DNA of 40,286 bases, taken from positions 1-40,286 of the IMG/VR virus record IMGVR_UViG_2541047822_000001. One strand, written 5' to 3'. The stretch is from a virus (Duplodnaviria > Heunggongvirae > Uroviricota > Caudoviricetes). The notes below the pieces were generated by a model. It saw nothing but the letters and a program-made list of their open reading frames with translations, was not told the origin of the DNA and searched no databases. The translations under genes were made by a program, and so were the position numbers. This document shows, in pieces, positions 3,155 through 32,050 of the stretch (positions within the stretch are counted from its first letter, which is position 1; each line of letters starts with the position of its first letter).

Positions 3155-3516
3155 TATGCTCCAGCCTCCGGTGCTTTTGGCATTACTGCCCAGTGAGTGA
3201 TATTGACGTTTTCAAGGTCCCCGACCTGAAATGTCCACTGCCATTCTCCGGTTTCTTTTTGTCCCCAGGTGTACCAGAGAGAACGCCAGCCAATTAGCCA
3301 GCCTTCTCCGTTAGCATCGAATAACAAAACACTTTCATTTGCTGGTGGCAGTTCAGTTGACACTGGTATTACTTTGTTTTCCTGTGCTGCACATTTAGCT
3401 TCAAGCGCATCGAATTTACGCACCAGGTATTCAGCATCTGTTTCATTCACTTTCAGATCTCGCGGTACACATCTCCCACGAAGAAACCCTTCCATTTCGA
3501 AAACATTCATGCGCAT
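3154..3516 (-). CDS. DUF551-like phage protein
   Basis: 120 aa; C-terminal W-rich region ...GEGWLIGWRSLWYTWGQKETGEWQWTFQVGDLENVNITHWAVMPKAPE resembles DUF551 (ends in THW.P.P). GGAG sits 9 nt before the ATG. Confidence 0.6.
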   Translation of the reverse strand: MRMNVFEMEGFLRGRCVPRDLKVNETDAEYLVRKFDALEAKCAAQENKVIPVSTELPPANESVLLFDANGEGWLIGWRSLWYTWGQKETGEWQWTFQVGDLENVNITHWAVMPKAPEAGA

Positions 3517-4043
3517 TTGCGTAACTCCGATAACTCGTTAAAACGTTCCATAAACATCCCGTAGGCATGGCCCGGTGCCTGTGGAATCACTTTGAACATC
3601 TCTGTTGCCGGGATACCTTCCAGTACAGGCCAGAAAGAGCCATCATCAAGCCCGAGATCGCGGCGTTCGGTTGCCAGCATAATGAGATCGGCATATTTCA
3701 CTGGCGTGCTCATAATAGGAGGTAACCCGTATTTCTCACGGATTACGGCGTCTATTTTTTCTTCCATCCGTTTATAGTCAGGAAGAAGTCGTTTCAGTGG
3801 TGCGGGGATGTCCTGGCAATATGCTTCTGTTGCATCATGCATTAAAGCTTCAAAAGCAAATTCCTGTGGCACCAGCTGGCTGCAAAGCACCGCATGTTGG
3901 GCGACACTGTAGAAGTGTGAAAGATGTCCTGCAAAGCGACAGATATTTGAAAGGGAAACCGCGATATCGTTAATAACGATGTCGTCTTTATTTATCCTGT
4001 CATAATAAAAATGCTTCCCGGAAAAAGTTTTAATAAATGACAT
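3507..4043 (-). CDS. HD-domain phosphohydrolase
   Basis: H...HD metal-binding motifs (FAGHLSHFYSVAQHAVL, LMHDATEAY). Track ORF starts at a GTG at 4070, but the ATG at 4043 has a GGAGA Shine-Dalgarno 7 nt upstream, so I take 4043. Confidence 0.8.
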   Translation of the reverse strand: MSFIKTFSGKHFYYDRINKDDIVINDIAVSLSNICRFAGHLSHFYSVAQHAVLCSQLVPQEFAFEALMHDATEAYCQDIPAPLKRLLPDYKRMEEKIDAVIREKYGLPPIMSTPVKYADLIMLATERRDLGLDDGSFWPVLEGIPATEMFKVIPQAPGHAYGMFMERFNELSELRKCA

Positions 4044-4140
4044 TTTGTTCTCCACGTATATGCGCTGCACCGCGCTGAATTCGGGTAAAAGGAAGCCCTC
4101 ACCGTCCGGCGATTATTGAGTCAATTACATTTCCATAAAT

Positions 4141-4372
4141 GCCCCCGTAGGGGCGGTTAGTTTCTCCACAAAACAGAGAAGAACACCTGCGGTGGCAGCC
4201 GCCCGGATGGATTGGGTTATGAGCCCGTCGTCCGGTGATGCTCTTCTCTGTTTTGTAAAAAGGACGGTACCAGCCGGAAGCAAAGGTACAAGCTGGTACC
4301 GCCAAGACTACACACAGCATAAAGTTGTGGTGCCGGGTGCCTCCCGGTGCCTGGCGAAGGTTGCACACCAGG
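4141..4372. other. GC-rich structured non-coding block (candidate RNA element)
   Basis: No protein-like ORF across 4071..4556. Perfect 15-bp inverted repeat ACAAAACAGAGAAGA (4168..4182) / TCTTCTCTGTTTTGT (4242..4256); hairpins GCCCC-CGTA-GGGGC (4141..4154), GGTACCAGC...GCTGGTACC (4266..4300), CCTGG...CCAGG (4350..4372). Strand and function unknown. Confidence 0.3.
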
Positions 4373-4556
4373 CGGGTGGGTATCCACAGAAGGTCGACTG
4401 TCAGCCTCAACCTTAACCCGCGTGCGCTGAGCCGCATTCACCACAACGCTAAGGATTCTCTCTGGTTGAAAATACTTAGCTGTTATGTGCCTGTCTTTTC
4501 ACCACTTCAGGCTCGGTGGTATCCTTTTAAGCCCGTATACATAAAAGGAAAATCAA

Positions 4557-4802
4557 ATGACTTTTGATGAAAAAGAACTTGATAATGCAATTAATAAAAT
4601 CATCGTAACGTCGCTCTTTTCCTGTCTCAGCGACACTCAGCAAAAACAGTTCTACGAATCGGCTTTCAACATGATCGAGCGTTGTTGTTTCTGCGATGCC
4701 GACGAGTTACCTGAAAAAATCAGGAAACAGTTGGCTGATGCTCTTCGAGTGCGACTTTCTGACCAATTTTCTGAAATGTACTCTTCGAATTTGGACAAAT
4801 AG
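4557..4802 (+). CDS. hypothetical small protein (81 aa)
   Basis: AAGGA Shine-Dalgarno 8 nt before ATG; helical-looking sequence. The 3' end overlaps convergent ORF 4720..4995 by 83 nt, so one of the two may be spurious. Confidence 0.4.
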   Translation: MTFDEKELDNAINKIIVTSLFSCLSDTQQKQFYESAFNMIERCCFCDADELPEKIRKQLADALRVRLSDQFSEMYSSNLDK

Positions 4803-4995
4803 AAAAAGGCCATTTCCATTCAGGGTCTGATGGAAAGACTTCAGCCTGTTCTAAAGCACGGCGTAAAGAGAACACAACTCCAGCCATAATCTGATGTTTC
4901 CCATTGGTCCAGCTATCGCCGCTCTGATCTACAGGAGCGGCTATGTCGTATGACCAAACGACTTCACCACTATTGTTTAAAATCTGGACTTTCAT
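4720..4995 (-). CDS. hypothetical small protein (91 aa)
   Basis: GGAGG 10 nt upstream of ATG at 4995; follows the upstream gene on the same strand after a 9-nt gap. The C-terminal third overlaps 4557..4802. Confidence 0.45.
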   Translation of the reverse strand: MKVQILNNSGEVVWSYDIAAPVDQSGDSWTNGKHQIMAGVVFSLRRALEQAEVFPSDPEWKWPFSICPNSKSTFQKIGQKVALEEHQPTVS

Positions 4996-5003
4996 TTTGT
5001 TCT

Positions 5004-5207
5004 TTAACCTCCAGATTTCCGCGCATCTAAAGGCGCATTCTCATTTGGTGTGAACTGAATAGTTGTGCTGATATTGATTAATGCCCCGACACACAAGACT
5101 ACGCACTCAGAGCAGATAGCAACTTCATCTTTTCCGCCTTTGGCGATGATTTTTTTTGCCTGCAGCTCGTTTGCGCCACAAAACGAGCATGTGAAATAAC
5201 GGTTCAT
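5004..5207 (-). CDS. small protein with ClpX-type C4 zinc finger (~67 aa)
   Basis: MNRYFTCSFCGANELQAKKIIAKGGKDEVAICSECVVLCVGALI matches the N-terminal zinc-binding domain of ClpX (CSFCGK...KLIAG...ICDECVDLC). Second in-frame ATG at 5207 has an AAGAGAG Shine-Dalgarno. Confidence 0.6.
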   Translation of the reverse strand: MNRYFTCSFCGANELQAKKIIAKGGKDEVAICSECVVLCVGALINISTTIQFTPNENAPLDARKSGG

Positions 5208-5303
5208 TTGCGCTCTCTTACACATAGTATTTAACGAATCATCCGGTCATTCATACGCCACCGGCGGCTACTTCGTGGGCGTCCTGCCTGTTCGTTGTTT
5301 TAA

Positions 5304-5357
5304 CACCTTTAAGTTGTAATTTAGTTGTGGTTTTGAATGTTGTCAACAACTTTATGT
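5304..5357. promoter_or_regulatory. OL-like operator cluster
   Basis: CACCTTTAAGTTGTAAT (5304..5320) and ACAACTTTATGT (5346..5357) recur in the cI/cro intergenic region (CACCTAAAAGTTGTGAT at 7024..7040; ACAACTTTATGT at 6999..7010). Half-sites AAGTTGT/ACAACTT are reverse complements. Confidence 0.5.
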
Positions 5358-5409
5358 GGTTTGAACGAGTAGCCAAGGAGTGCAAGGATTATCAAAAAAA
5401 GGAGGTTGT

Positions 5410-6300
5410 ATGGAAGACGCGCTTTACGCTTTTAATTACACACAGAACCGGGACAAGTTATTTGCTAACTTGATTAGCATCATTGATGGAATTATTGCAG
5501 ATGGAGTTGTCCGTGAAGAGGAGGTTCTTTACTTAGATACATGGTTACTTGAAGCAAAGCAGATTATCAATAATGGAGTTATAAAAAGTCTATCAGCACG
5601 GGTGTCGGATATTCTTGCAGATGGAATAATCACATCAGAAGAACGTGATGACCTTAAAAATAGCCTTCTCCAAATACAGAGGGAAATTCTTGATATCCCT
5701 GAAATTGATTTTTACTCCAAGGATGTAGATGTCCATTTACTTAATGGACTATGTAAAGGATTAATTGCTGATCGGAACTTAACTCAAGAAGAAATAAGAT
5801 ATCTTAATTGGTGGCTTGAGCAAAATGGAGCTTTGAAGAACAACTACCCAGGAAAAAAACTTTATGCACTTGTAAAGGAAATTCTTAAAGATGGTGTTAT
5901 TACTGAAGATGAGAGTTTAACTCTACATAAGGCATTAGTAGACTTCACAGGATGTGACTTGGAAAGTGGAGTGGTGGATGGTTTGGCGACCAGGCTGCCT
6001 ATTGATGTAGGGGCTTCGATAGAGTTAGAGGGTAAAACCTATTGTCTTACAGGCACTTTTGTTGCAGGAAAGAGAGCCGTAGTTGAAAATTTGATTAAAA
6101 ATGCTGGTGGGAACATCAGTAGTGGAATTACTCAAAAGTTGGATTTTTTAGTAATTGGGACGCTTTCCTCCCGTGATTGGAAATTCTCAAGTCACGGAAG
6201 GAAGATCGAAAAGGCTATATCTTATAGGGATGATAATGGTGCAAAACTTAAAATTATTTCTGAAGAAATGCTTTTCGATGCATTACCAAGTTCGCGATGA
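5410..6300 (+). CDS. accessory protein: four TerB-like repeats plus C-terminal BRCT domain (296 aa)
   Basis: ATG at 5410 with AAAGGAGG Shine-Dalgarno (track begins at an upstream GTG). Repeats IADGVVREEEVLYLDTWL / LADGIITSEERDDLKNSL / IADRNLTQEEIRYLNWWL / LKDGVITEDESLTLHKAL; C-terminus LEGKTYCLTGTFVAGKRAVVENLIKNAGGNISSGITQKLDFLVIG...AKLKIISEEMLFDAL fits the BRCT pattern of NAD-ligase C-termini. Visibly AT-rich. Confidence 0.8.
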   Translation: MEDALYAFNYTQNRDKLFANLISIIDGIIADGVVREEEVLYLDTWLLEAKQIINNGVIKSLSARVSDILADGIITSEERDDLKNSLLQIQREILDIPEIDFYSKDVDVHLLNGLCKGLIADRNLTQEEIRYLNWWLEQNGALKNNYPGKKLYALVKEILKDGVITEDESLTLHKALVDFTGCDLESGVVDGLATRLPIDVGASIELEGKTYCLTGTFVAGKRAVVENLIKNAGGNISSGITQKLDFLVIGTLSSRDWKFSSHGRKIEKAISYRDDNGAKLKIISEEMLFDALPSSR

Positions 6301-6969
6301 CCAGAATACCCTACCTATAACATGAATTCTGGCTCGTCTATCTTCAAAGGTGAGTATTTCATCTGGGTACTCATCTTTGTTGAAGCTTCTAAGAATCAAG
6401 CCACCGTCAGGTAAGTTGATAAGTATTTTAACCCTTAGCAATACACCATCTCGTACGGCATAAAGATCGCCATCACGAATAGGAACGGTTTGAGAAATAT
6501 CAACGGCAACAAGATCTCCATTATTGAGAACCGGTAATAAACTGTTCCCCCATATTTTTACGATCTTGGCATTAGATGCACATACGCCAGATTTTCTCAA
6601 ATCTGCTCTTCTTAATGGAAACCAGTCAATAGCTGATTCAACTATTTCAGCCAGACATCCGTTACCTGCCGATAACTCGACATCTAAAACAGGAATGTTT
6701 ACGAAAATATCGGGGTCTAATGCGGTGCTTTCTGCTTCTTTTACAACAAGATCAGGTATGGATGCGTTGTCTTCAATACCAAGTTGTAACCACTTTTGTG
6801 ATACACCTAAAACTTTTGCAATTTCTTTAATTTTGCGCGGTTGTAGAGTTTCGCCATTCTCTATTTTGGCTACAGATTGTTGTGAAAGTCCAATTTTTTC
6901 AGCTAGTTGAGCTTGGCTCATGCCAGCTTTCTCTCTACCTATCTTTAATCGTTCTGCCAGTGTTTTCAC
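6283..6969 (-). CDS. cI: CI-like repressor (HTH_XRE + S24 LexA-like peptidase)
   Basis: N-terminal HTH (LAERLKIGREKAGMSQAQLAEKIGLSQQSVAKIENGE) and C-terminal S24 autocleavage domain (...GNSLLPVLNNGDLVAVD...). GTG start at 6969 preceded by GAGGG; diverges from cro across an operator-rich gap. Confidence 0.9.
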   Translation of the reverse strand: MKTLAERLKIGREKAGMSQAQLAEKIGLSQQSVAKIENGETLQPRKIKEIAKVLGVSQKWLQLGIEDNASIPDLVVKEAESTALDPDIFVNIPVLDVELSAGNGCLAEIVESAIDWFPLRRADLRKSGVCASNAKIVKIWGNSLLPVLNNGDLVAVDISQTVPIRDGDLYAVRDGVLLRVKILINLPDGGLILRSFNKDEYPDEILTFEDRRARIHVIGRVFWSSRTW

Positions 6970-25497: not shown

Positions 25498-26977
25498 CAC
25501 CATTCCGTCGAATACGCTGGTTCCGTTGTTTTATGCGGAAATGGATAACCAGGCGGCGAATACTGCACAGGACAGCGGAGCATCGCTGCTGATTGGTCAT
25601 GTCAATAACGGTGCAGAGATTGTTGCCAACAGTCTGGTACTGATGCCGTCGGCAGACTATGCACGCCAGATTTGTGGTGCGGGAAGTCAGCTGGCGCGTA
25701 TGGTCGAGGCTTATCGCCAGACTGACCCGTTTGGCGAGCTGTATGTGATTGCCGTTCCTGAATCCACAGGCGCGGCGGCAACAGTTACGCTGACGGTGAC
25801 CGGGGCAGCAACCGAAACCGGCACGGTGAATGTTTATGTGGGACGTACCCGCGTGCAGGCACCGGTGACCAACGGCGATAACGTCGCGACGATTGCCAGC
25901 AGTATCAAAGATGCCATCAATGCCGTTCCGGCCCTGCCGTTTACGGCCTCATCTTCGGCTGGTGTGGTTACATTGACCGCTCGCCATAAGGGGCTTTGCG
26001 GGAATGAAATTCCTGTCAGCCTCAATTACTACGGCTTTGGTGGGGGCGAAGTGCTGCCAGCGGGCGTACAGATTGCCGTGGCGACGGGTACCGCCGGAAC
26101 GGGTGCTCCGGTTCTCACCGGCGCGGTGGCTGCAATGGCGGATGAGCCGTTTGATTATATCGGCCTGCCGTTCAACGACACGGCCTCCGTTAACACGCTG
26201 GTGACCGAGATGAACGATACCAGCGGTCGCTGGAGCTATGCGCGTCAGCTGTATGGTCATGTGTATACGGCAAAGATCGGCACGCTGTCAGAACTGGTGA
26301 CCGCAGGTGACCAGTTTAACCAGCAGCACATTACCCTGGCGGGGTACGAAAAAGAGACCCAGACGCCTGCCGACGAGCTGGCGGCAAGCCGTACCGCCCG
26401 CGCAGCGGTGTTTATCCGCAACGATCCGGCACGTCCCACGCAGACCGGTGAGCTGGTGGGTATGCTGCCTGCGCCGAAGGGGAAACGGTTCACGATGACC
26501 GAACAACAGACCCTGCTGTCTCATGGCGTGGCAACGGCGTATGTCGAAAGCGGGGTACTGCGCATTCAGCGTGATGTCACCACGTACAGGAAAAACGCTT
26601 ACGGGGTTGCGGATAACAGCTACCTCGACAGCGAGACGCTGCATACCAGTGCGTATGTACTGCGCAAACTGAAATCCGTCATTACCAGTAAGTACGGGCG
26701 TCACAAGCTTGCCAGCGACGGTACCCGCTTTGGTCCCGGTCAGGCGATTGTCACCCCGGCGGTGATCAAAGGGGAACTGCTGGCAACCTACCGTCAGCTT
26801 GAGCGTGCGGGGATCGTGGAAAACTACGAACTTTTTAAGCAGTACCTGGTTGTGGAGCGTGATGCCAGCGATCCGAACCGCCTGAACACGCTGTTCCCGC
26901 CTGACTATGTTAACCAGTTGCGTGTCTTTGCCGTGGTTAACCAGTTCCGTCTTCAGTATTCAGAGGAGTCCGCATAA
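25481..26977 (+). CDS. tail sheath protein (Mu gpL-like)
   Basis: 498 aa, immediately followed by the tube gene; overall Mu-like sheath-type sequence. Confidence 0.85.
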   Translation: MTISFNTIPSNTLVPLFYAEMDNQAANTAQDSGASLLIGHVNNGAEIVANSLVLMPSADYARQICGAGSQLARMVEAYRQTDPFGELYVIAVPESTGAAATVTLTVTGAATETGTVNVYVGRTRVQAPVTNGDNVATIASSIKDAINAVPALPFTASSSAGVVTLTARHKGLCGNEIPVSLNYYGFGGGEVLPAGVQIAVATGTAGTGAPVLTGAVAAMADEPFDYIGLPFNDTASVNTLVTEMNDTSGRWSYARQLYGHVYTAKIGTLSELVTAGDQFNQQHITLAGYEKETQTPADELAASRTARAAVFIRNDPARPTQTGELVGMLPAPKGKRFTMTEQQTLLSHGVATAYVESGVLRIQRDVTTYRKNAYGVADNSYLDSETLHTSAYVLRKLKSVITSKYGRHKLASDGTRFGPGQAIVTPAVIKGELLATYRQLERAGIVENYELFKQYLVVERDASDPNRLNTLFPPDYVNQLRVFAVVNQFRLQYSEESA

Positions 26978-27333
26978 TGGCCCGTATCGGGGGAACCTGT
27001 TATTTCAAAATTGACGGTCAGCAGCTATCGCTGACCGGCGGCATTGAGGTGCCCATGAACAGGACGGTCAATGATGACATCATCGGCCTGGACGGTTCAG
27101 TGGACCGCAAGGAAACTCACCGTGCGCCTTATGTTAAAGGGACCTTCAAGGTGCCGAAGAATTTTCCGGTGAGCAAAATCACCTCGTCTGATGAGATGAC
27201 CATCACAGCCGAGCTGGCGAACGGTCAGGTCTATGTACTGTCGTCTGCCTGGCTGCACGGCGAAGCAAACCATAATGCCGAAGAAGGGACGGTTGATCTT
27301 GAGTTCCACGGTGAAGAAGGGGATTACCAGTAA
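26977..27333 (+). CDS. tail tube protein (Mu gpM-like)
   Basis: 118 aa, ATGA-coupled to the sheath gene; standard sheath-tube-chaperone-tape measure order. Confidence 0.8.
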   Translation: MARIGGTCYFKIDGQQLSLTGGIEVPMNRTVNDDIIGLDGSVDRKETHRAPYVKGTFKVPKNFPVSKITSSDEMTITAELANGQVYVLSSAWLHGEANHNAEEGTVDLEFHGEEGDYQ

Positions 27334-27602
27334 TGAAAGAGCTTGAGTTAAAGAAACCGATTACCGCTCATGGCGAGACACTCTCCGTACTGGAGTTTGA
27401 TGAGCCCACCGGGAAAGATGTCCGCGAGCTGGGGTATCCCTACCAGATGAATCAGGATGAGTCCGTCAGACTTCTGGCGCATGTGGTATCGAAATACATT
27501 GTGCGGCTGGCGAAAGTGCCGCAAAGCTCTGTCGACCAGATGTCTCCGGCAGACCTGAATGCAGCGGCGTGGCTTGTGGCTGGTTTTTTCCTCCAGGCCT
27601 GA
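27333..27602 (+). CDS. tail assembly chaperone (short form)
   Basis: 89-aa ORF directly upstream of the tape measure gene, ending in a T-rich slippery tract. Confidence 0.75.
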   Translation: MKELELKKPITAHGETLSVLEFDEPTGKDVRELGYPYQMNQDESVRLLAHVVSKYIVRLAKVPQSSVDQMSPADLNAAAWLVAGFFLQA

Positions 27603-27751
27603 CGGCTGAATACCTCACTGATCGCTTCTTTGACTGCGCCAGTTACTGGCGCATTAATCCTTTCGAATTGCTGAATATGCCGATCAGTGAAATTCCCTTA
27701 CTGGTCAGTCAGGCAAACAGGATAGAGCAGGAGAAACGCACACATGGCTGA
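27333..27751 (+). CDS. tail assembly chaperone, long form via programmed -1 frameshift
   Basis: Canonical X_XXY_YYZ heptamer T_TTT_TTC at 27584..27590 in the zero frame, 4 codons before the stop; a -1 slip joins frame 27569..27751 (...FFPPGLTAEYLTDRFFDC...), which ends 8 nt into the tape measure gene. Analogous to lambda G/GT. Confidence 0.55.
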
Positions 27752-29579
27752 ATTTGAGCTTAAGGCGTTGATCACCGGTGTCGACAGGCTTTCTCCCGCG
27801 CTGTCGAAAATGCAAAAGAAAATCCGGGGATTTAAACGCCAGGCGGAAGAAGCGTCACAGGGTGGGCTGGCGCTTGGTGGCGGACTGGCAGCGGGTCTGA
27901 CGCTTTCCCTGAAATCTTATGCCGATCAGGAAAACGCCGCCACCGGGCTGAAAGTCGCTATGATGGATGCGAACGGCGAGATTGGAAAGCGCTTTCAGGA
28001 CATCAATAAACTGGCTATTGGCCTGGGTAACCAGCTACCCGGTACAACGGCTGATTTCCAGAACATGATGCAGATGCTGGTGCGTCAGGGGATCCCGGCA
28101 GAAAACATTCTGAGTGGTGTGGGTAAAGCGACAGCTTATCTTGCGGTACAACTGAAAAAAACACCGGAAGCGGCTGCTGAGTTTGCTGCAAAGATGCAGG
28201 ATGCTACCGGAACGGCGTCAGAAGACATGATGGGGCTGTTCGACACTATCCAGAAGGCGTTTTATCTGGGCGTGGACGATACCAACATGTTGTCCTTCTT
28301 CACTAAAACCAGCTCTGTTCTGAAGATGGTGAACAAGGACGGTCTTCAGGCTGCACAGAGCCTTGCCCCCATCAGCGTCATGATGGATCAGATGGGGATG
28401 AACGGGGAGTCGGCAGGTAACGCCCTGCGAAAAGTTATCCAGTCCGGATTAAGCGTTAAGAAAATCAGGGACGTCAATAAAATCATGGCCCGCCAGAAAC
28501 TCGGGGTACAGCTCGATTTTACTGACGGCAAAGGGAGTTTTGGCGGTCTTGATAACATGTTCAGGCAACTGGCAAAGCTGCGAAAACTGACCGACGTTAA
28601 ACGAACTGGTGTACTTAAGGCAATATTTGGTGATGATGCCGAAACCCTTCAGGTGGTCAATGCACTAATCGATAAAGGAAAGGATGGCTACGATCAGATC
28701 CAGCAGAAGATGAATAAACAGGCCAGCCTGAATAAACGTGTTCAGGCACAGCTTGGTACGCTGTCCAACCTGTGGGAGGCAATGACAGGGACCGCAACTA
28801 ACGGCCTTGCGGCTATTGGCGGCGCATTTTCTGGTGACGCTAAAAATATCACGCAATGGCTGGGGGAGTTGGGGGAGAAATTCACGAAGTTTGCGGATGA
28901 AAATCCCCGGGTTATTCGCGGCGTCGTCGGGCTTGCTGCTGGTCTTGCGATTCTGAAACTGGGATTGATGGGCGTTGGCGGTGCCATCAGTATTGTCAGC
29001 AGGATCATGTCGATGACACCGATTGGCATGATTGCGACGGCGATAGCCCTGGCTGCGGGATTAATTATCACTAACTGGGATGTTGTCGGACCTTATTTTA
29101 AGAAACTCTGGGAAACCATTGGTCCTTATTTTGAGGCTGGCTGGGAACTCCTTAAGAAAGTTTTTGCCTGGTCGCCGCTGGGGATGGTGATCAATAACTG
29201 GGGGCCGGTTGTTAAGTGGTTTCAGGATATGTGGGACAAGCTGAAGCCAATTATTGAGTGGTTTACCGACAGTTCCGGTGACACGGTCGATGCCATTAAC
29301 TCTGCGCAGTGGGGCGCGGGTGCTTATGATGCTTATGGGACGGGAATACCGGCGCGGGGATACACACCTTATCCGGCGGTAGATCCGGCTCAGTCAAACA
29401 ACGCCTCCGGTGCCACAGGCCCGAATCCCTTCATGATTAACAAAGCTTCTGCGCCAAAAGTTGATGGTGAGATCAAGGTCTCTTTTATGAATTCGCCTCC
29501 GGGTATGCGGGTTATGGAAACGCGATCCAGCGGTTTTGATGTCAGCCATGATGTTGGCTATACGCGCTTTGGCAGGTAA
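27744..29579 (+). CDS. tail tape measure protein
   Basis: 611 aa, helical N-terminal half, Gly/Ala-rich transmembrane-like central segment, position after the chaperone pair. Confidence 0.85.
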   Translation: MAEFELKALITGVDRLSPALSKMQKKIRGFKRQAEEASQGGLALGGGLAAGLTLSLKSYADQENAATGLKVAMMDANGEIGKRFQDINKLAIGLGNQLPGTTADFQNMMQMLVRQGIPAENILSGVGKATAYLAVQLKKTPEAAAEFAAKMQDATGTASEDMMGLFDTIQKAFYLGVDDTNMLSFFTKTSSVLKMVNKDGLQAAQSLAPISVMMDQMGMNGESAGNALRKVIQSGLSVKKIRDVNKIMARQKLGVQLDFTDGKGSFGGLDNMFRQLAKLRKLTDVKRTGVLKAIFGDDAETLQVVNALIDKGKDGYDQIQQKMNKQASLNKRVQAQLGTLSNLWEAMTGTATNGLAAIGGAFSGDAKNITQWLGELGEKFTKFADENPRVIRGVVGLAAGLAILKLGLMGVGGAISIVSRIMSMTPIGMIATAIALAAGLIITNWDVVGPYFKKLWETIGPYFEAGWELLKKVFAWSPLGMVINNWGPVVKWFQDMWDKLKPIIEWFTDSSGDTVDAINSAQWGAGAYDAYGTGIPARGYTPYPAVDPAQSNNASGATGPNPFMINKASAPKVDGEIKVSFMNSPPGMRVMETRSSGFDVSHDVGYTRFGR

Positions 29580-29639
29580 TGAAAAATTAATCTGTTAATG
29601 AGTCCCACTCCGGTGGGATTTTTTATGTACGGAGTTTAT

Positions 29640-30968
29640 ATGACGTGGAAAGACAGACTTCAGGACGCGTCATTTCGCGGTGTGCCGTTTAAGGTTGAAG
29701 AAGAAAGTGCGGGAACCGGTCGTCGTGTGGAAACGCACGAATACCCGAACCGCGACAAACCCTATACCGAAGACCTGGGGAAAATCACTTTCCGCCCGTC
29801 CATCACAGCTTATGTGGTGGGAGATGACTGCTTTGACCAGCGCGATCGCCTGATTGACGCGCTGAATAAACCCGGTCCCGGCACGCTTGTCCATCCGACT
29901 TACGGTGAGCTGAAAGTCTGTGTTGACGGGGAAGTTCGGGTCAGCACATCGAAGAGTGAAGGGCGTATTGTCCGCTTTGACCTGAAGTTTGTCGAAGCGG
30001 GAGAACTCTCTTACCCCACTTCAGGTGCGGCGACGGCGCAGACGCTGATGTCATCCTGTTCTGCACTGGATGACTGCATCAGTGACAGCTTCAGTGGTTT
30101 CAGTATCGATGGCGTGGCAGATTTTGTGCAGAACGACGTCGTCGGTAATGTCAGCACAATGCTTGGGTATGTTTCTGATGCGATGAAAGTGGTGGATTCT
30201 GCCGTATCGGATGCCGCCAGGCTGTTGCAGGGGGATATCTCGGTACTTCTGCCGCCGCCATCGTCAGGCAAAAATTTCGTTGAGCAGGTGCAGAAAATGT
30301 GGCGTACCGGGAAACGCCTTTATGGTAACGCCAGCGACCTGGTCACCATGATCAAAACGCTTTCCGGTGTCAGCCTCGGCAGCGATCTGCAACCGCGCGG
30401 CGTCTGGAAAACGGACAGTAAAACCAACGCCACGGCGACGCAGCAGCGTAACGTGGTTGCCAGCACCCTTCGTACGACCGCAATCAGCGAAGCGGCGTAT
30501 GCCGTCACACGATTGCCTGCGCCCACAACTTCCGCGGTGATGCAGAATGCCACAATGGGGCAGTCAACAACACCCGCGCAGAGCACCGGCTGGCCTTCTG
30601 TCACGCATCCGGCACTGAACAATGCACCGGCGGTGAAAAACACGGTTGACCTGCCAACGTGGGAAGAACTGACCGACATTCGCGACACACTGAATACGGC
30701 AATTGATAAGGAGTTGTCCCGTACAACCAGTGATGCGCTGTTTCTGGCGCTGCGCCGGGTGAAAGCAGATCTGAATGCGGATATCAACACGCGCCTTGAA
30801 CAGTCTGCACGGATCATTCAGCGCACGCCGGATGAGGTTTTACCCGCGCTGGTGCTGGCGGCGACCTTGTTTGATAACGCGGCGCGTGACGCGGACATTA
30901 TCCGGCGTAATGCCATTACGCATCCCGGCTTTGTGCCGGTGATCCCTCTGAAGGTGCCAGTGCAATGA
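29640..30968 (+). CDS. Mu N-like DNA circularisation / tail protein
   Basis: ATG at 29640 (GGAG Shine-Dalgarno) gives MTWKDRLQDASFRGVPFKVEEE..., as in Mu gpN-like proteins. Confidence 0.8.
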   Translation: MTWKDRLQDASFRGVPFKVEEESAGTGRRVETHEYPNRDKPYTEDLGKITFRPSITAYVVGDDCFDQRDRLIDALNKPGPGTLVHPTYGELKVCVDGEVRVSTSKSEGRIVRFDLKFVEAGELSYPTSGAATAQTLMSSCSALDDCISDSFSGFSIDGVADFVQNDVVGNVSTMLGYVSDAMKVVDSAVSDAARLLQGDISVLLPPPSSGKNFVEQVQKMWRTGKRLYGNASDLVTMIKTLSGVSLGSDLQPRGVWKTDSKTNATATQQRNVVASTLRTTAISEAAYAVTRLPAPTTSAVMQNATMGQSTTPAQSTGWPSVTHPALNNAPAVKNTVDLPTWEELTDIRDTLNTAIDKELSRTTSDALFLALRRVKADLNADINTRLEQSARIIQRTPDEVLPALVLAATLFDNAARDADIIRRNAITHPGFVPVIPLKVPVQ

Positions 30969-32050
30969 ACGACAATGTCACGCTACGGGTAAATGGCCGG
31001 GAGTGGAATGGCTGGACATCGGTGCGCATCGGTGCCGGTGTTGAACGACTGGCGCGGGATTTCAGTGTGGAGATCACCCGCCAGTGGCCGGGAGATGAGG
31101 GTATTACCACGCTTCAGTCGCGCATTAAAAACGGTTCAAAAGTGGAGGTGCTGATTGGTGATGAGCTGGTGATCACCGGCTGGGTGGAGGCGACGCCCGT
31201 TCGTTACGATGCCCGTTCGGTCAGCACCGGTATTGCCGGACGTAGTCTGACGGCTGACCTGATTGACTGTGCAGCCGAACCGACACAGTTTAACGGACGC
31301 TCGCTGGTGCAGATTGCGCAGGCGCTTGCTGCGCCTTTCGGCATTGAGGTGGTGAACAGCGGTGCGCCGTCGGGTGTTATTCCTGATGTTCAGCCTGATC
31401 ACGGTGAAACGGTGATTGAGGTAATCAACAAAATACTCGGTCAGCAGCAGGCACTGGCTTACGACGACCCGCACGGCAGGCTGGTGATTGGCGGTATTGG
31501 CTCAACGCGGGCACATACTGCGCTGGTACTCGGGGAAAACATCCTTTCCTGTGATACGGAGAAGAGTATCCGGGAGCGGTTTTCTGTTTACCAGGTGGCG
31601 GGGCAGCGTGCCGGAAACGACGATGATTTCGGTGAGGCCACCACCACCGCGCTGCGGGCCCGCACAGAGGACGCATTTATTGCCCGTTACCGTCCGATGT
31701 ATATCAGGCAGACAGGGCAGGCTACGGGGGCAGGCTGTATTGCCCGTGCGGACTTTGAAGCCAGACAACGGGCGGCGCGGACGGATGAAACCACCTATGT
31801 GGTGCAGGGCTGGCGACAGGGTAACGGTACGCTGTGGCAGCCCAACCAGCGGGTGATTGTCTTTGATCCGGTCTGTGGTTTCGACAATACCGAACTGCTT
31901 GTTTCGGAAGTCACGTTTACTCAGGACCAGAACGGCACCCTGACGGAAATCCGTGTCGGCCCACCTGATGCTTATCTGCCTGAACCCGAAGCCCCCGGCG
32001 CGCGAAAAAAGCCAGAGTACAGGAGGACCCGTTCTGATGAGGACGATTGA
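30965..32050 (+). CDS. Mu P-like tail/baseplate hub protein
   Basis: 361 aa, coupled to the upstream gene, in the Mu gpP position. Confidence 0.75.
   Translation: MNDNVTLRVNGREWNGWTSVRIGAGVERLARDFSVEITRQWPGDEGITTLQSRIKNGSKVEVLIGDELVITGWVEATPVRYDARSVSTGIAGRSLTADLIDCAAEPTQFNGRSLVQIAQALAAPFGIEVVNSGAPSGVIPDVQPDHGETVIEVINKILGQQQALAYDDPHGRLVIGGIGSTRAHTALVLGENILSCDTEKSIRERFSVYQVAGQRAGNDDDFGEATTTALRARTEDAFIARYRPMYIRQTGQATGAGCIARADFEARQRAARTDETTYVVQGWRQGNGTLWQPNQRVIVFDPVCGFDNTELLVSEVTFTQDQNGTLTEIRVGPPDAYLPEPEAPGARKKPEYRRTRSDEDD

Follow-up and report, generated by a model that had tools for sequence, protein, structure and literature searches.

The 40,286-nt window analyzed here (IMG/VR record IMGVR_UViG_2541047822_000001, positions 1 to 40,286) is an SfII/SfV-like prophage inserted beside a tRNA-Thr gene (1369–1441, Rfam tRNA model), and our subject is the block at positions 4044–4556 in its early-left operon. 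This block carries two structured RNAs on the minus strand. The upstream one (4477..4254) resembles the prophage RNA family STnc100 and ends in an intrinsic terminator; the one that follows (4259..4160) is a three-way junction closed by a 20-bp stem. We propose, with moderate confidence, that the block is the untranslated leader of the leftward early genes, built of portable RNA modules that together form a cassette for small RNA (sRNA) release and RNase III processing. Judged from sequence, the first module appears to be a new variant of a known sRNA family, one that scores below the family threshold and lies in a setting new for the family. The second is an undescribed RNA motif that is widely conserved across the Enterobacterales and whose most likely role has good precedent.

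Two structured RNAs on the minus strand

The initial annotation had described a GC-rich region full of perfect hairpins, and this description holds. The G+C content is 52–57% in the block versus 41–46% in its flanks, and the arms of the 15-bp inverted repeat (4168–4182/4242–4256) are fully complementary, with 59 nt between them; a repeat-finding tool extends these arms to 25 nt at 84% (4168–4192/4232–4256). The shorter perfect stems are present as well: a 10-bp stem (4265–4274/4292–4301), a 9-bp stem (repeat I9, 4324–4332/4439–4447), an 8-bp stem (repeat I17, 4522–4529/4542–4549), and a G+C hairpin (4140–4155). The predicted folding energy of the minus-strand RNA from 4130 to 4262 is −63.2 kcal/mol (z = −7.0; none of 200 shuffles was as good), whereas the plus strand reaches z = −4.8; for 4250–4490, the corresponding z values are −4.5 (minus) and −2.4 (plus). 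Since wobble pairs, folding energies, and the covariance-model scores given later all agree, the structure is read on the minus strand, which is the direction of the early-left operon. The suggestion that the region could be a structured leader for the gene starting at 4557 thus falls away: that gene is on the plus strand, opposite to the RNA, and the structures lead into the leftward genes.

The outer stem of the long-stem junction (4160..4259, minus strand, as defined by a covariance model, covariation, and synteny) pairs 4256..4237 with 4187..4168 in 20 contiguous base pairs, of which the 15-bp repeat is the core, and it reaches 25 bp if the U-run of the terminator pairs with GGAGA. The stem encloses hairpin A (4235..4203) and hairpin B (4202..4189) and is followed by a conserved tail, GGAGAAAC (4167..4160). 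The covariance model, R1, scores 116.7 bits on the minus strand versus 42.3 bits on the plus strand and finds one copy in the window, and none of the 4227 Rfam families matches the junction. A pattern search of viral contigs yielded 120 loci with 68 hairpin variants, and 46 distinct variants of the trimmed element made up the covariation alignment. Folding combined with covariation across relatives, which the initial annotation had proposed as a check, revealed that the paired regions are conserved: 96.2% of the cells in the alignment are paired, and double compensatory changes occur at 10 pairs, compared with at most 3 in controls with shifted partners, while no shuffle attains the observed covariation score. 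G–U pairs are frequent (e.g., U–G in 42 of the 46 variants at one position), and these are mismatched on the opposite strand.

These data bear on the idea that the inverted repeat acts at the DNA level, as an operator, a recombination site, or the remnant of a repeat element, to which its location in a mosaic junction region might point. The arms vary by compensatory substitution rather than being fixed, the many minus-strand G–U pairs correspond to A–C mismatches on the other strand or in DNA, and the model score is strongly strand asymmetric. Moreover, the element is present in a single copy in the window and at a median of one copy per Escherichia coli genome. We therefore give next to no credence to a DNA palindrome.

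To complement the pattern search, 80 loci were collected independently of any pattern, via the neighboring protein YfdP, and searched with the covariance model. The element was found 30 to 44 nt upstream of the yfdP start codon in Escherichia, Shigella, Leclercia, Kosakonia, Enterobacter, Phytobacter, Klebsiella, Buttiauxella, Mangrovibacter, Citrobacter, Mixta, Pseudocitrobacter, Atlantibacter, Izhakiella, Superficieibacter, and Scandinavium. Model scores were weaker in Serratia, Chania, Yersinia, Proteus, Morganella, and Symbiopectobacterium, and the same fold layout is seen in Providencia, Xenorhabdus, and Rahnella; folding gave no long-stem junction in Marinobacter and other non-enteric relatives. 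Overall, over 20 genera of the Enterobacterales have the element about 40 nt ahead of yfdP or of an rdgC-like gene. In the 80 YfdP loci it is always on the strand of the gene (up to 117 bits versus about 43 bits on the opposite strand), and its outer stem covaries throughout. The stem is approximately 17 to 25 bp long in all genera, while the inner sequences vary.

The surroundings of the junction are equally regular. In 23 of the 25 genera examined, the stem starts directly after the U-run of a terminator, and downstream of it come a near-invariant GUGGAGAAAC or GUAUGGAGAA tail, a small covarying hairpin, and the Shine–Dalgarno sequence of the next gene. The element thus sits between a terminator and the first early gene, 30 to 44 nt from the start codon, with which it is presumably cotranscribed. 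The next gene encodes YfdP at 86 loci, YfdR at 12 (a deletion form, as in the window), and an RdgC-like protein at about 14, and this variety implies that the element is tied to the start of the early gene block and not to any single gene. We considered whether the conserved GUG/AUG in GUGGAGAAAC could initiate a leader peptide, and rejected this: the frames run from 3 to more than 20 codons, with neither a conserved frame nor a conserved stop. As a separate observation, many genera have a conserved motif, GAAGAUAAUGUUCUG, often following AGGAGG, within the large loop of the terminator ahead of the long hairpin, some 20 to 40 nt before the U-run (loci L131, L160, L163, L164, L165, L170, L172, L173, L191, and others); it does not occur in E. 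coli.

For the upstream module, the Rfam scan that the initial annotation had suggested, covering 901 nt against all 4227 families and evaluated by E-value, returned a relative of STnc100 (RF02076) at 4254..4477 on the minus strand, with 43.4 bits and E = 6e-8 over model positions 1 to 206, which is the full length of the model. Since this score is below the gathering score of 47 bits, the RNA is missed by a default Rfam scan and would not be called by annotation pipelines using that cutoff. Its multi-helix core (4324..4447), delineated by repeat I9, the predicted fold, and the Rfam match, is closed by a 9-bp helix (4447..4439/4332..4324; GUUGUGGUG/CACCACAAC) and holds the invariant GGUGAAU and CACCGGGAGGCACCCGGCACCA motifs plus, according to the fold, four inner hairpins. 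The hallmark of STnc100, namely a helix-closed core followed by GGUGAAU and a CCGGGAGGCACCCGG hairpin at the end, is present here. Four unrelated sequences, from the SfV type, canonical STnc100, a Klebsiella phage, and the Qin prophage, make up the closing helix, and all of them pair; in Qin, the CCGGG/CCCGG of the CCGGGAGGCACCCGG hairpin is replaced by CCUGG/CCAGG.

The 3′ terminator part of the STnc100 alignment corresponds to an intrinsic terminator at 4257..4303 on the minus strand, with a 13-bp stem (4303..4291/4275..4263) and five U residues (4261..4257; fold −23 kcal/mol). In phage ST64B the terminator has another sequence, yet the hairpin and the U-run are kept. The 5′ arm is weakly DicF-like (UCUUGGCGGUACCAGCUU): the DicF model (RF00039) gives 19.3 bits (E = 0.17) at 4262–4316 on the minus strand, compared with a threshold of 48 bits and 76.7 bits for true DicF, and the 3′ half of the site is unlike that of DicF, which uses its 3′ region to pair with the ftsZ ribosome-binding site. 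At the other end, the core is preceded by a 46-nt 5′ module (4480..4525, minus strand), which folds into a hairpin, ACCAC(10-nt loop)GUGGU, with an A-rich single strand on its 3′ side (GAAAAGACAGGCACAUAACAG). This module is about 95% identical in Klebsiella phages, and in one of these it lies directly upstream of an STnc100-like core in the same orientation. The module may overlap the unmapped promoter or 5′ untranslated region of the plus-strand gene for an 81-aa protein.

The RNA in the window belongs to an early-operon subtype whose signature is a first hairpin reading GCGGCU.AGCGCACGCGG. Relatives of this subtype are found in SfV (39.5 bits with RF02076), ST64B (35.1 bits), Buttiauxella, and the dicF–dicB spacer of E. 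coli K-12 (34.4 bits, E = 1e-5). A Klebsiella phage core follows the 46-nt module, lacks the terminator, and continues into the genes upstream of kil. The widespread STnc100/PasD family of prophage sRNAs thus has a sub-threshold early-operon branch that includes the well-studied K-12 dicF–dicB spacer.

Canonical STnc100 is EcOnc27, an Hfq-crosslinked RNA of about 235/247 nt on Northern blots (PMC4104026 supplement; PMC12711010), located downstream of stx2B (PMC4104026, PMC12711010), and PasD is related to STnc100 (bioRxiv 10.64898/2026.05.13.724894). Strain EDL933 has 11 annotated STnc100 copies, one of them confirmed by Northern blotting and none at this locus (PMC5331693). Like these RNAs (EcOnc27, also sRNA103, and the PasD-related ones), the RNA in the window is prophage borne, matches the model over its full length, and has the closing helix with GGUGAAU, the CACCGGGAGGCACCCGGCACCA hairpin, and the 3′ terminator. 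It differs in its first hairpin, which is GCGGCUCAGCGCACGC here and CCCCCUGUGCGGAGGGG in canonical members, in the extra 46-nt 5′ module, and in being known from its sequence alone. The context differs as well: canonical members lie downstream of PR′ and of stx or moron genes, at a moron site where they are convergent with AgvB/AsxR-type RNAs (PMC4104026), whereas the RNA described here is part of the early-left operon, where it is flanked by the pL-like promoter and yfdR.

The view of the initial annotation that the region is functional RNA rather than spacer is borne out, for one part, by a significant match to a curated sRNA family over its full length and, for the other, by compensatory changes across many genera; among the roles that it had listed, sRNA and processing site are the two favored by the evidence. 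Its statement that the region is free of open reading frames (ORFs) is correct in the functional sense, as the block lacks a coding signature, but not literally, as mechanical ORFs of 112, 80, 75, 74, and 52 aa overlie it. Two of these, the 112-aa minus-strand ORF (SfII_35) and the 74-aa plus-strand ORF (phrog_3651), are annotated in some phage records, and the latter matches a PHROG family with E = 3e-49, which could be taken to mean that the block encodes a protein. However, variable sites are spread over the three codon positions (55/56/47 in the 112-aa ORF and 33/43/35 in the 74-aa ORF), and indels are mainly frame breaking, with 96 versus 16 and 53 versus 11, respectively, being nonmultiples versus multiples of three. 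Neighboring real genes show an excess at the third position (14/7/31, 20/9/39, and 117/91/174), and a clear coding pattern is seen in yfdR and in the ORFs of 81, 91, and 73 aa. In addition, the ORFs traverse the terminator and a deletion junction, they are interrupted by stops or frameshifts in several close relatives (with five stops in ST64B), one of them is a frameshifted pseudogene according to PGAP, and the 112-aa ORF has no Pfam or PHROG match. On this combined evidence from codon positions, indels, stops and frameshifts, and family searches, we rejected the protein-coding reading, which we consider to have hardly any chance of being right.

Proposed RNase III processing, sRNA release, and passage of the terminator

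Precedent for the proposed cassette is provided by the dicBF operon of the K-12 Qin prophage, which is repressed by a cI-like protein and from whose polycistronic transcript DicF is excised (PMC5069750; bioRxiv 10.1101/2023.04.14.536235); an internal promoter was not found (bioRxiv 10.1101/2023.04.14.536235). The 53-nt form of DicF has a 5′ end made by RNase E and a 3′ end at the terminator, while RNase III is responsible for the 5′ end of a 190-nt form and, by cutting read-through RNA, for the 3′ end of a 72-nt form (PMC5069750; bioRxiv 10.1101/2023.04.14.536235). Mapping these lengths onto the Qin sequence places the 72-nt end within a 21-bp helix, which begins 7 nt past the DicF terminator and closes an STnc100-like domain before dicB, and the 190-nt end within the 3′ arm of an approximately 20-bp hairpin (L211 2173–2258). 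Because the two ends lie within these helices, both module types appear, by this mapping, to be RNase III substrates in Qin. The STnc100-like domain in the dicF–dicB spacer is unannotated (L211 2433–2642, MG1655 1649432–1649641).

The Qin spacer and the block share an early operon under a cI-like repressor, a terminator-bearing sRNA between genes, and downstream genes whose products disturb division or replication of the host. Qin has an approximately 21-bp helix, closing an STnc100-like domain, directly after its terminator and, separately, the hairpin of about 20 bp, and the terminator arm in the window is, as noted, weakly DicF-like. The two regions differ in their order, which is hairpin, DicF, STnc100-like core, and dicB in Qin but STnc100-like core, terminator, hairpin, and gene in the window. 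They also differ in that the DicF model reaches only 19.3 bits in the window, the Qin hairpin is a marginal match to the long-hairpin model (14 bits, E ~0.01), and cleavage is documented for Qin only.

RNase III accommodates a duplex of about 22 bp (PMC6212723), a size that fits the conserved stem length of the junction, which in the window comprises 20 contiguous pairs and up to 25. Approximately one-third of the hairpin loci have an STnc100-like neighbor in a strict motif search, and this is probably an undercount because diverged cores and the tRNA-like versions in Serratia, Yersinia, and Proteus escape the strict motif. In Kluyvera and Buttiauxella, an STnc100-like core takes the place of the long hairpin immediately ahead of the GGAGA tail, and this replacement supports functional equivalence of the two helix-closed domains.

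Phages have well-known RNase III processing hairpins, such as those of the lambda N-leader, lambda sib, and the T7 early intercistronic sites. Like these, the hairpin in the window has at least 20 bp and would be part of a polycistronic early transcript, immediately ahead of a gene or beside a terminator, and, as in lambda sib, its formation would depend on read-through. It has no sequence relationship to them, it is branched and carries a conserved loop and a GGAGAA tail, and its cutting is a prediction.

The events that we envisage are as follows. Transcripts probably start at a repressor-controlled pL-like promoter about 0.8 kb upstream of the block. The STnc100-like multi-helix RNA would be made first and would end at the strong intrinsic terminator, where polymerase that stops would release a small RNA of approximately 220 to 270 nt; cutting by RNase E may then yield a shorter, DicF-like 3′ fragment. 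The released RNA would act on other mRNAs via Hfq, like EcOnc27 and PasD. Polymerase that reads through would next transcribe the 20-bp (up to 25-bp) helix closing the three-way junction, and RNase III would cut this helix, thereby separating the upstream noncoding RNA from the downstream mRNA and setting the stability or translation of the latter. The downstream mRNA would normally be yfdP-yfdQ-yfdR and so forth, and here it would be yfdR-yfdS-yfdT-xis-int.

If this is correct, STnc100-type RNAs are to be viewed as parts of processed polycistronic leaders and not only as stand-alone sRNA genes. The long-stem junction lies at the head of genes whose products stop replication and division of the host (YfdR, DicB, Kil), of which YfdR binds DnaA (PMC4776307), and in view of this location, it is likely a control point for the timing of toxic-gene expression from the prophage.

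Several points weigh against the processing cassette. A plain RNase III site accounts neither for the invariant GGAGAA tail nor for the near-invariant apical loop of the junction, the placement of the Qin cuts was mapped from published fragment lengths and not from published coordinates, and the STnc100 score of 43.4 bits is under the Rfam gathering threshold of 47 bits, in an early-left operon context that is unlike the canonical late-region site. Because the STnc100-like cores of some phages lack a terminator and directly adjoin the next gene, the core may act in cis rather than as a released sRNA. The locus is not in the tables of novel noncoding RNAs from RNA-seq and Ribo-seq of EDL933, and there is no Sp1-labeled entry in the sRNA table from Hfq-CRAC (cross-linking and analysis of cDNA) of strain Sakai, although in both cases the cultures were uninduced and the presence of the locus in the strain was unchecked. 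Our literature search gave no paper on sRNAs at this position in ST64B or SfV, and no report of a transcript, a 5′ end, or a cleavage site.

Some of the same observations could be accommodated by a free-standing sRNA gene with its own unrecognized promoter, expressed in the lysogen and acting purely in trans via Hfq, in which case the hairpin would be incidental. Canonical members of the family are indeed abundant and Hfq bound in uninduced lysogens, the terminator is strong, and the A-rich single-stranded 5′ module is of the Hfq-binding kind. However, there is no promoter-like site upstream on the minus strand: no sigma-70 promoter was found at consensus level for either the STnc100-like RNA or the 81-aa gene, and the sequences upstream of the RNA are not common to E. 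coli, ST64B, and the Klebsiella phage. In addition, the related dicBF operon lacks an internal promoter, several phages have the core without the terminator, and the hairpin is conserved in its own right. We thus consider a free-standing sRNA gene unlikely and retain the processing cassette as the preferred reading.

The placement of the block in an early-left operon, as the initial annotation had it, is supported by the cI-like repressor gene (6283–6969), by a promoter-like site (10/12) at 5346..5318 beside this gene and about 0.8 kb upstream of the block, and by the downstream genes, which are all on the minus strand. Transcription from this pL-like site would have to pass the terminator at 4303..4257, and no N-like gene is conserved between the promoter and the early genes. 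The long hairpin could itself be a cis-acting processive antiterminator like put of phage HK022, with its inner hairpins binding RNA polymerase and enabling passage of downstream terminators. The absence of a conserved N-like gene (ST64B has about 750 nt without an ORF), the two side-by-side hairpins within the junction, and the presence of terminator-like hairpins downstream, such as the yfdQ 3′ hairpin, would suit such a role, and HK022 put is likewise a cis-acting RNA with two adjacent stem-loops in the leftward early operon of a lambdoid phage without N. Unlike put, the hairpin in the window is enclosed by a long stem and lies after a terminator, about 1.06 kb from the promoter, whereas put sites are close to theirs (PMC9378689). 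Moreover, the inner hairpins are not conserved outside the Enterobacteriaceae, and model R1 finds nothing in positions 24000–32000 of HK022, 8 kb fetched to cover the immunity region. A separate and much better placed candidate lies directly after pL, and we judge a put-like function of the long hairpin to be very improbable.

This candidate is a leader of about 65 nt at 5234–5296 (minus strand), just downstream of the promoter-like site, consisting of CGAACAGGCAGGACGCCCACGAAGUAGCCGCC, a stem-loop, and GAUGAUUCG. It is almost invariant, with 80 variants in the fetched loci and compensatory changes at three pairs of the inner stem, and it is also found in phages of Escherichia, Salmonella, Shigella, Pectobacterium, Yersinia, Klebsiella, Providencia, and Aeromonas. 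No Rfam family matches it at the gathering threshold, and BLAST gave no similarity to HK022 put. As a possible antitermination signal, the pL leader is preferable to every part of the block, and antitermination by it would explain how polymerase passes the terminator.

An initiator-tRNA anticodon copy and tRNA-like modules

The apex of hairpin A (4214..4227, minus strand; CGGGCUCAUAACCC) is identical to the anticodon stem-loop of the E. coli initiator tRNA. The 14-nt match to metZ is exact, and its local alignment score was reached by 1 of 5000 shuffles. Of 24 strong, independent homologs from the Enterobacteriaceae that were identified by synteny, 22 retain CUCAU, while the surrounding stem drifts. 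Compared with the initiator tRNA genes (metZWV, metY), the identical nucleotides correspond to the C28–C41 stem-loop with its CAU anticodon, but the phage hairpin has no cloverleaf and no T or D arm. ARAGORN, run over 3900–4700, found no tRNA gene in the block, and the Rfam tRNA model matches only the tRNA-Thr at 1369–1441.

The long hairpin might thus be a mimic or decoy of the anticodon arm that diverts a factor recognizing tRNA-fMet, such as a VapC-type nuclease, the 30S P site with initiation factor 3 (IF3), or methionyl-tRNA synthetase (MetRS), with the long stem as a mere scaffold. Such a function would be in keeping with the inclusion in the identity of the three G–C pairs typical of initiator tRNA, with a loop that is nearly invariant while the outer stem covaries, and with the fact that enteric VapC toxins from Shigella and Salmonella cleave tRNA-fMet (PMC7180214). 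Equivalent upstream modules in Yersinia and Proteus score as Rfam tRNA (40.3 and 35.9 bits), the Yersinia one with GGUUCAUAACC. On the other hand, the resemblance was spotted after the fact, the GGG/CCC stem never varies, so that pairing there is beyond test, and directly beneath it two pairs are mismatched. The motif is also missing from the hairpins of Serratia, Yersinia, Proteus, and Morganella, which retain the stem and the position, ARAGORN sees no tRNA, and the literature search gave no paper describing such a decoy. We consider the decoy quite improbable and a functional tRNA mimic unlikely; the anticodon copy nevertheless provides a concrete, bench-testable hypothesis on tRNA mimicry by temperate phages.

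The tRNA-like modules mentioned previously lie just upstream of the long hairpin in Yersinia massiliensis (L188 2169–2296) and Proteus terrae (L176 2275–2343); both are above the Rfam tRNA threshold and are rejected by ARAGORN. The Proteus module is nested in an STnc100-type closing helix (GAUUGGUGAAU...CCACCAAUC), and this nesting suggests that STnc100 cores may derive from tRNA. Together, the anticodon copy and the tRNA-like modules hint at tRNA-derived origin or mimicry. A broader version, in which early-left leaders carry a family of tRNA-derived RNA domains, the apical loop is a working mimic serving as a decoy for VapC-type toxins that cleave tRNA-fMet or as a ligand of the ribosomal P site with IF3 or of MetRS, and STnc100-type cores are degenerate tRNA-like structures, seems improbable to us.

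The metY-nusA-infB operon of K-12 (L212 700–915, minus strand) has the same order of parts, namely initiator tRNA, a hairpin of about 20 bp, and terminators. The hairpin in its metY–rimP spacer is a known RNase III site. Homology between the long hairpin and this spacer was considered and rejected, as none was found beyond the anticodon arm of metY itself.

Mosaic build and prophage setting

Downstream of the junction, the block continues into sequence of a different origin. Positions 4044–4154 match the sequence between yfdQ and yfdR in SfV and in the CPS-53 prophage of K-12, and positions 4143–4556 match the region upstream of yfdP (orf32) in SfV. Because the two pieces match separate SfV regions, yfdP and yfdQ must have been lost from the prophage (junction at 4143–4154, compared with SfV locus L001, 1098–2500), and by this deletion the long hairpin became fused to the yfdR leader and precedes yfdR in the window. 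The yfdP–yfdQ pair is also absent in SfII, SKA5, and the O157:H7 thrW prophage and is present in SfV, mEp460, ST64B, and K-12 CPS-53. The junction is marked by a small G+C hairpin, GCCCC-UAC-GGGGC (4140..4155, minus strand), derived from the 3′ side of yfdQ. Between it and the start codon lies the 5′ untranslated leader of yfdR (4044..4139, minus strand), which shares 94% identity with its counterpart between yfdQ and yfdR in K-12 and SfV. CPS-53 was rejected as a source of the hairpin, as it has the yfdR leader alone in common with the window.

The subsegments of 4143–4556 differ in their distribution among phages, and the block is thus not one element but a mosaic in which modules with distributions of their own are combined with the scar of a deletion. 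Its noncoding extent is most likely 4044–4556, with yfdR, which encodes a 5′-deoxynucleotidase, starting at the ATG at 4043 and not at the GTG at 4070. At the upstream end, an A+T-rich spacer (4526..4556, assigned to no strand) with the 8-bp hairpin described previously adjoins the start of the plus-strand 81-aa gene; this spacer is annotated as a “putative terminator” in SfV, but a T-run after the hairpin is absent on both strands.

Phages SKA5 and SfII match the block at 98.6 to 98.7% identity. Of 5426 complete E. coli genomes, 2788 carry all or part of it, and in 678 of these the match covers at least 80% of the block. About half of the complete E. coli genomes therefore hold part of a block that is unannotated or entered as a hypothetical protein: in public records the region is blank, a hypothetical protein, or a frameshifted pseudogene (O157:H7, PGAP), and the PGAP record has no noncoding RNA at this position.

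On the leftward side, the minus-strand genes run from yfdR (3507–4043) through yfdS, yfdT, and xis to int (1459–2622). Upstream of the block, the genes for the 81-aa protein (4557–4802, plus strand, phrog_3311) and a 91-aa protein (4720–4995, minus strand, phrog_3195) are convergent and overlap by 83 nt; both look real because both show an excess of third-position substitutions, and the 81-aa gene is antisense to the early-left transcript. The first leftward ORF (5004–5225, minus strand) encodes a 73-aa ClpX-type zinc-finger protein, and between the repressor gene and the pL-like promoter lies the gene for a 306-aa protein with a C-terminal BRCT domain (5380–6300, plus strand, phrog_3989). Finally, the rightward operon of ST64B contains a match to the sRNA isrK (L007 5232–5308, plus strand; 64.3 bits versus a threshold of 50), overlapped only by the coding sequence of a transcriptional regulator.

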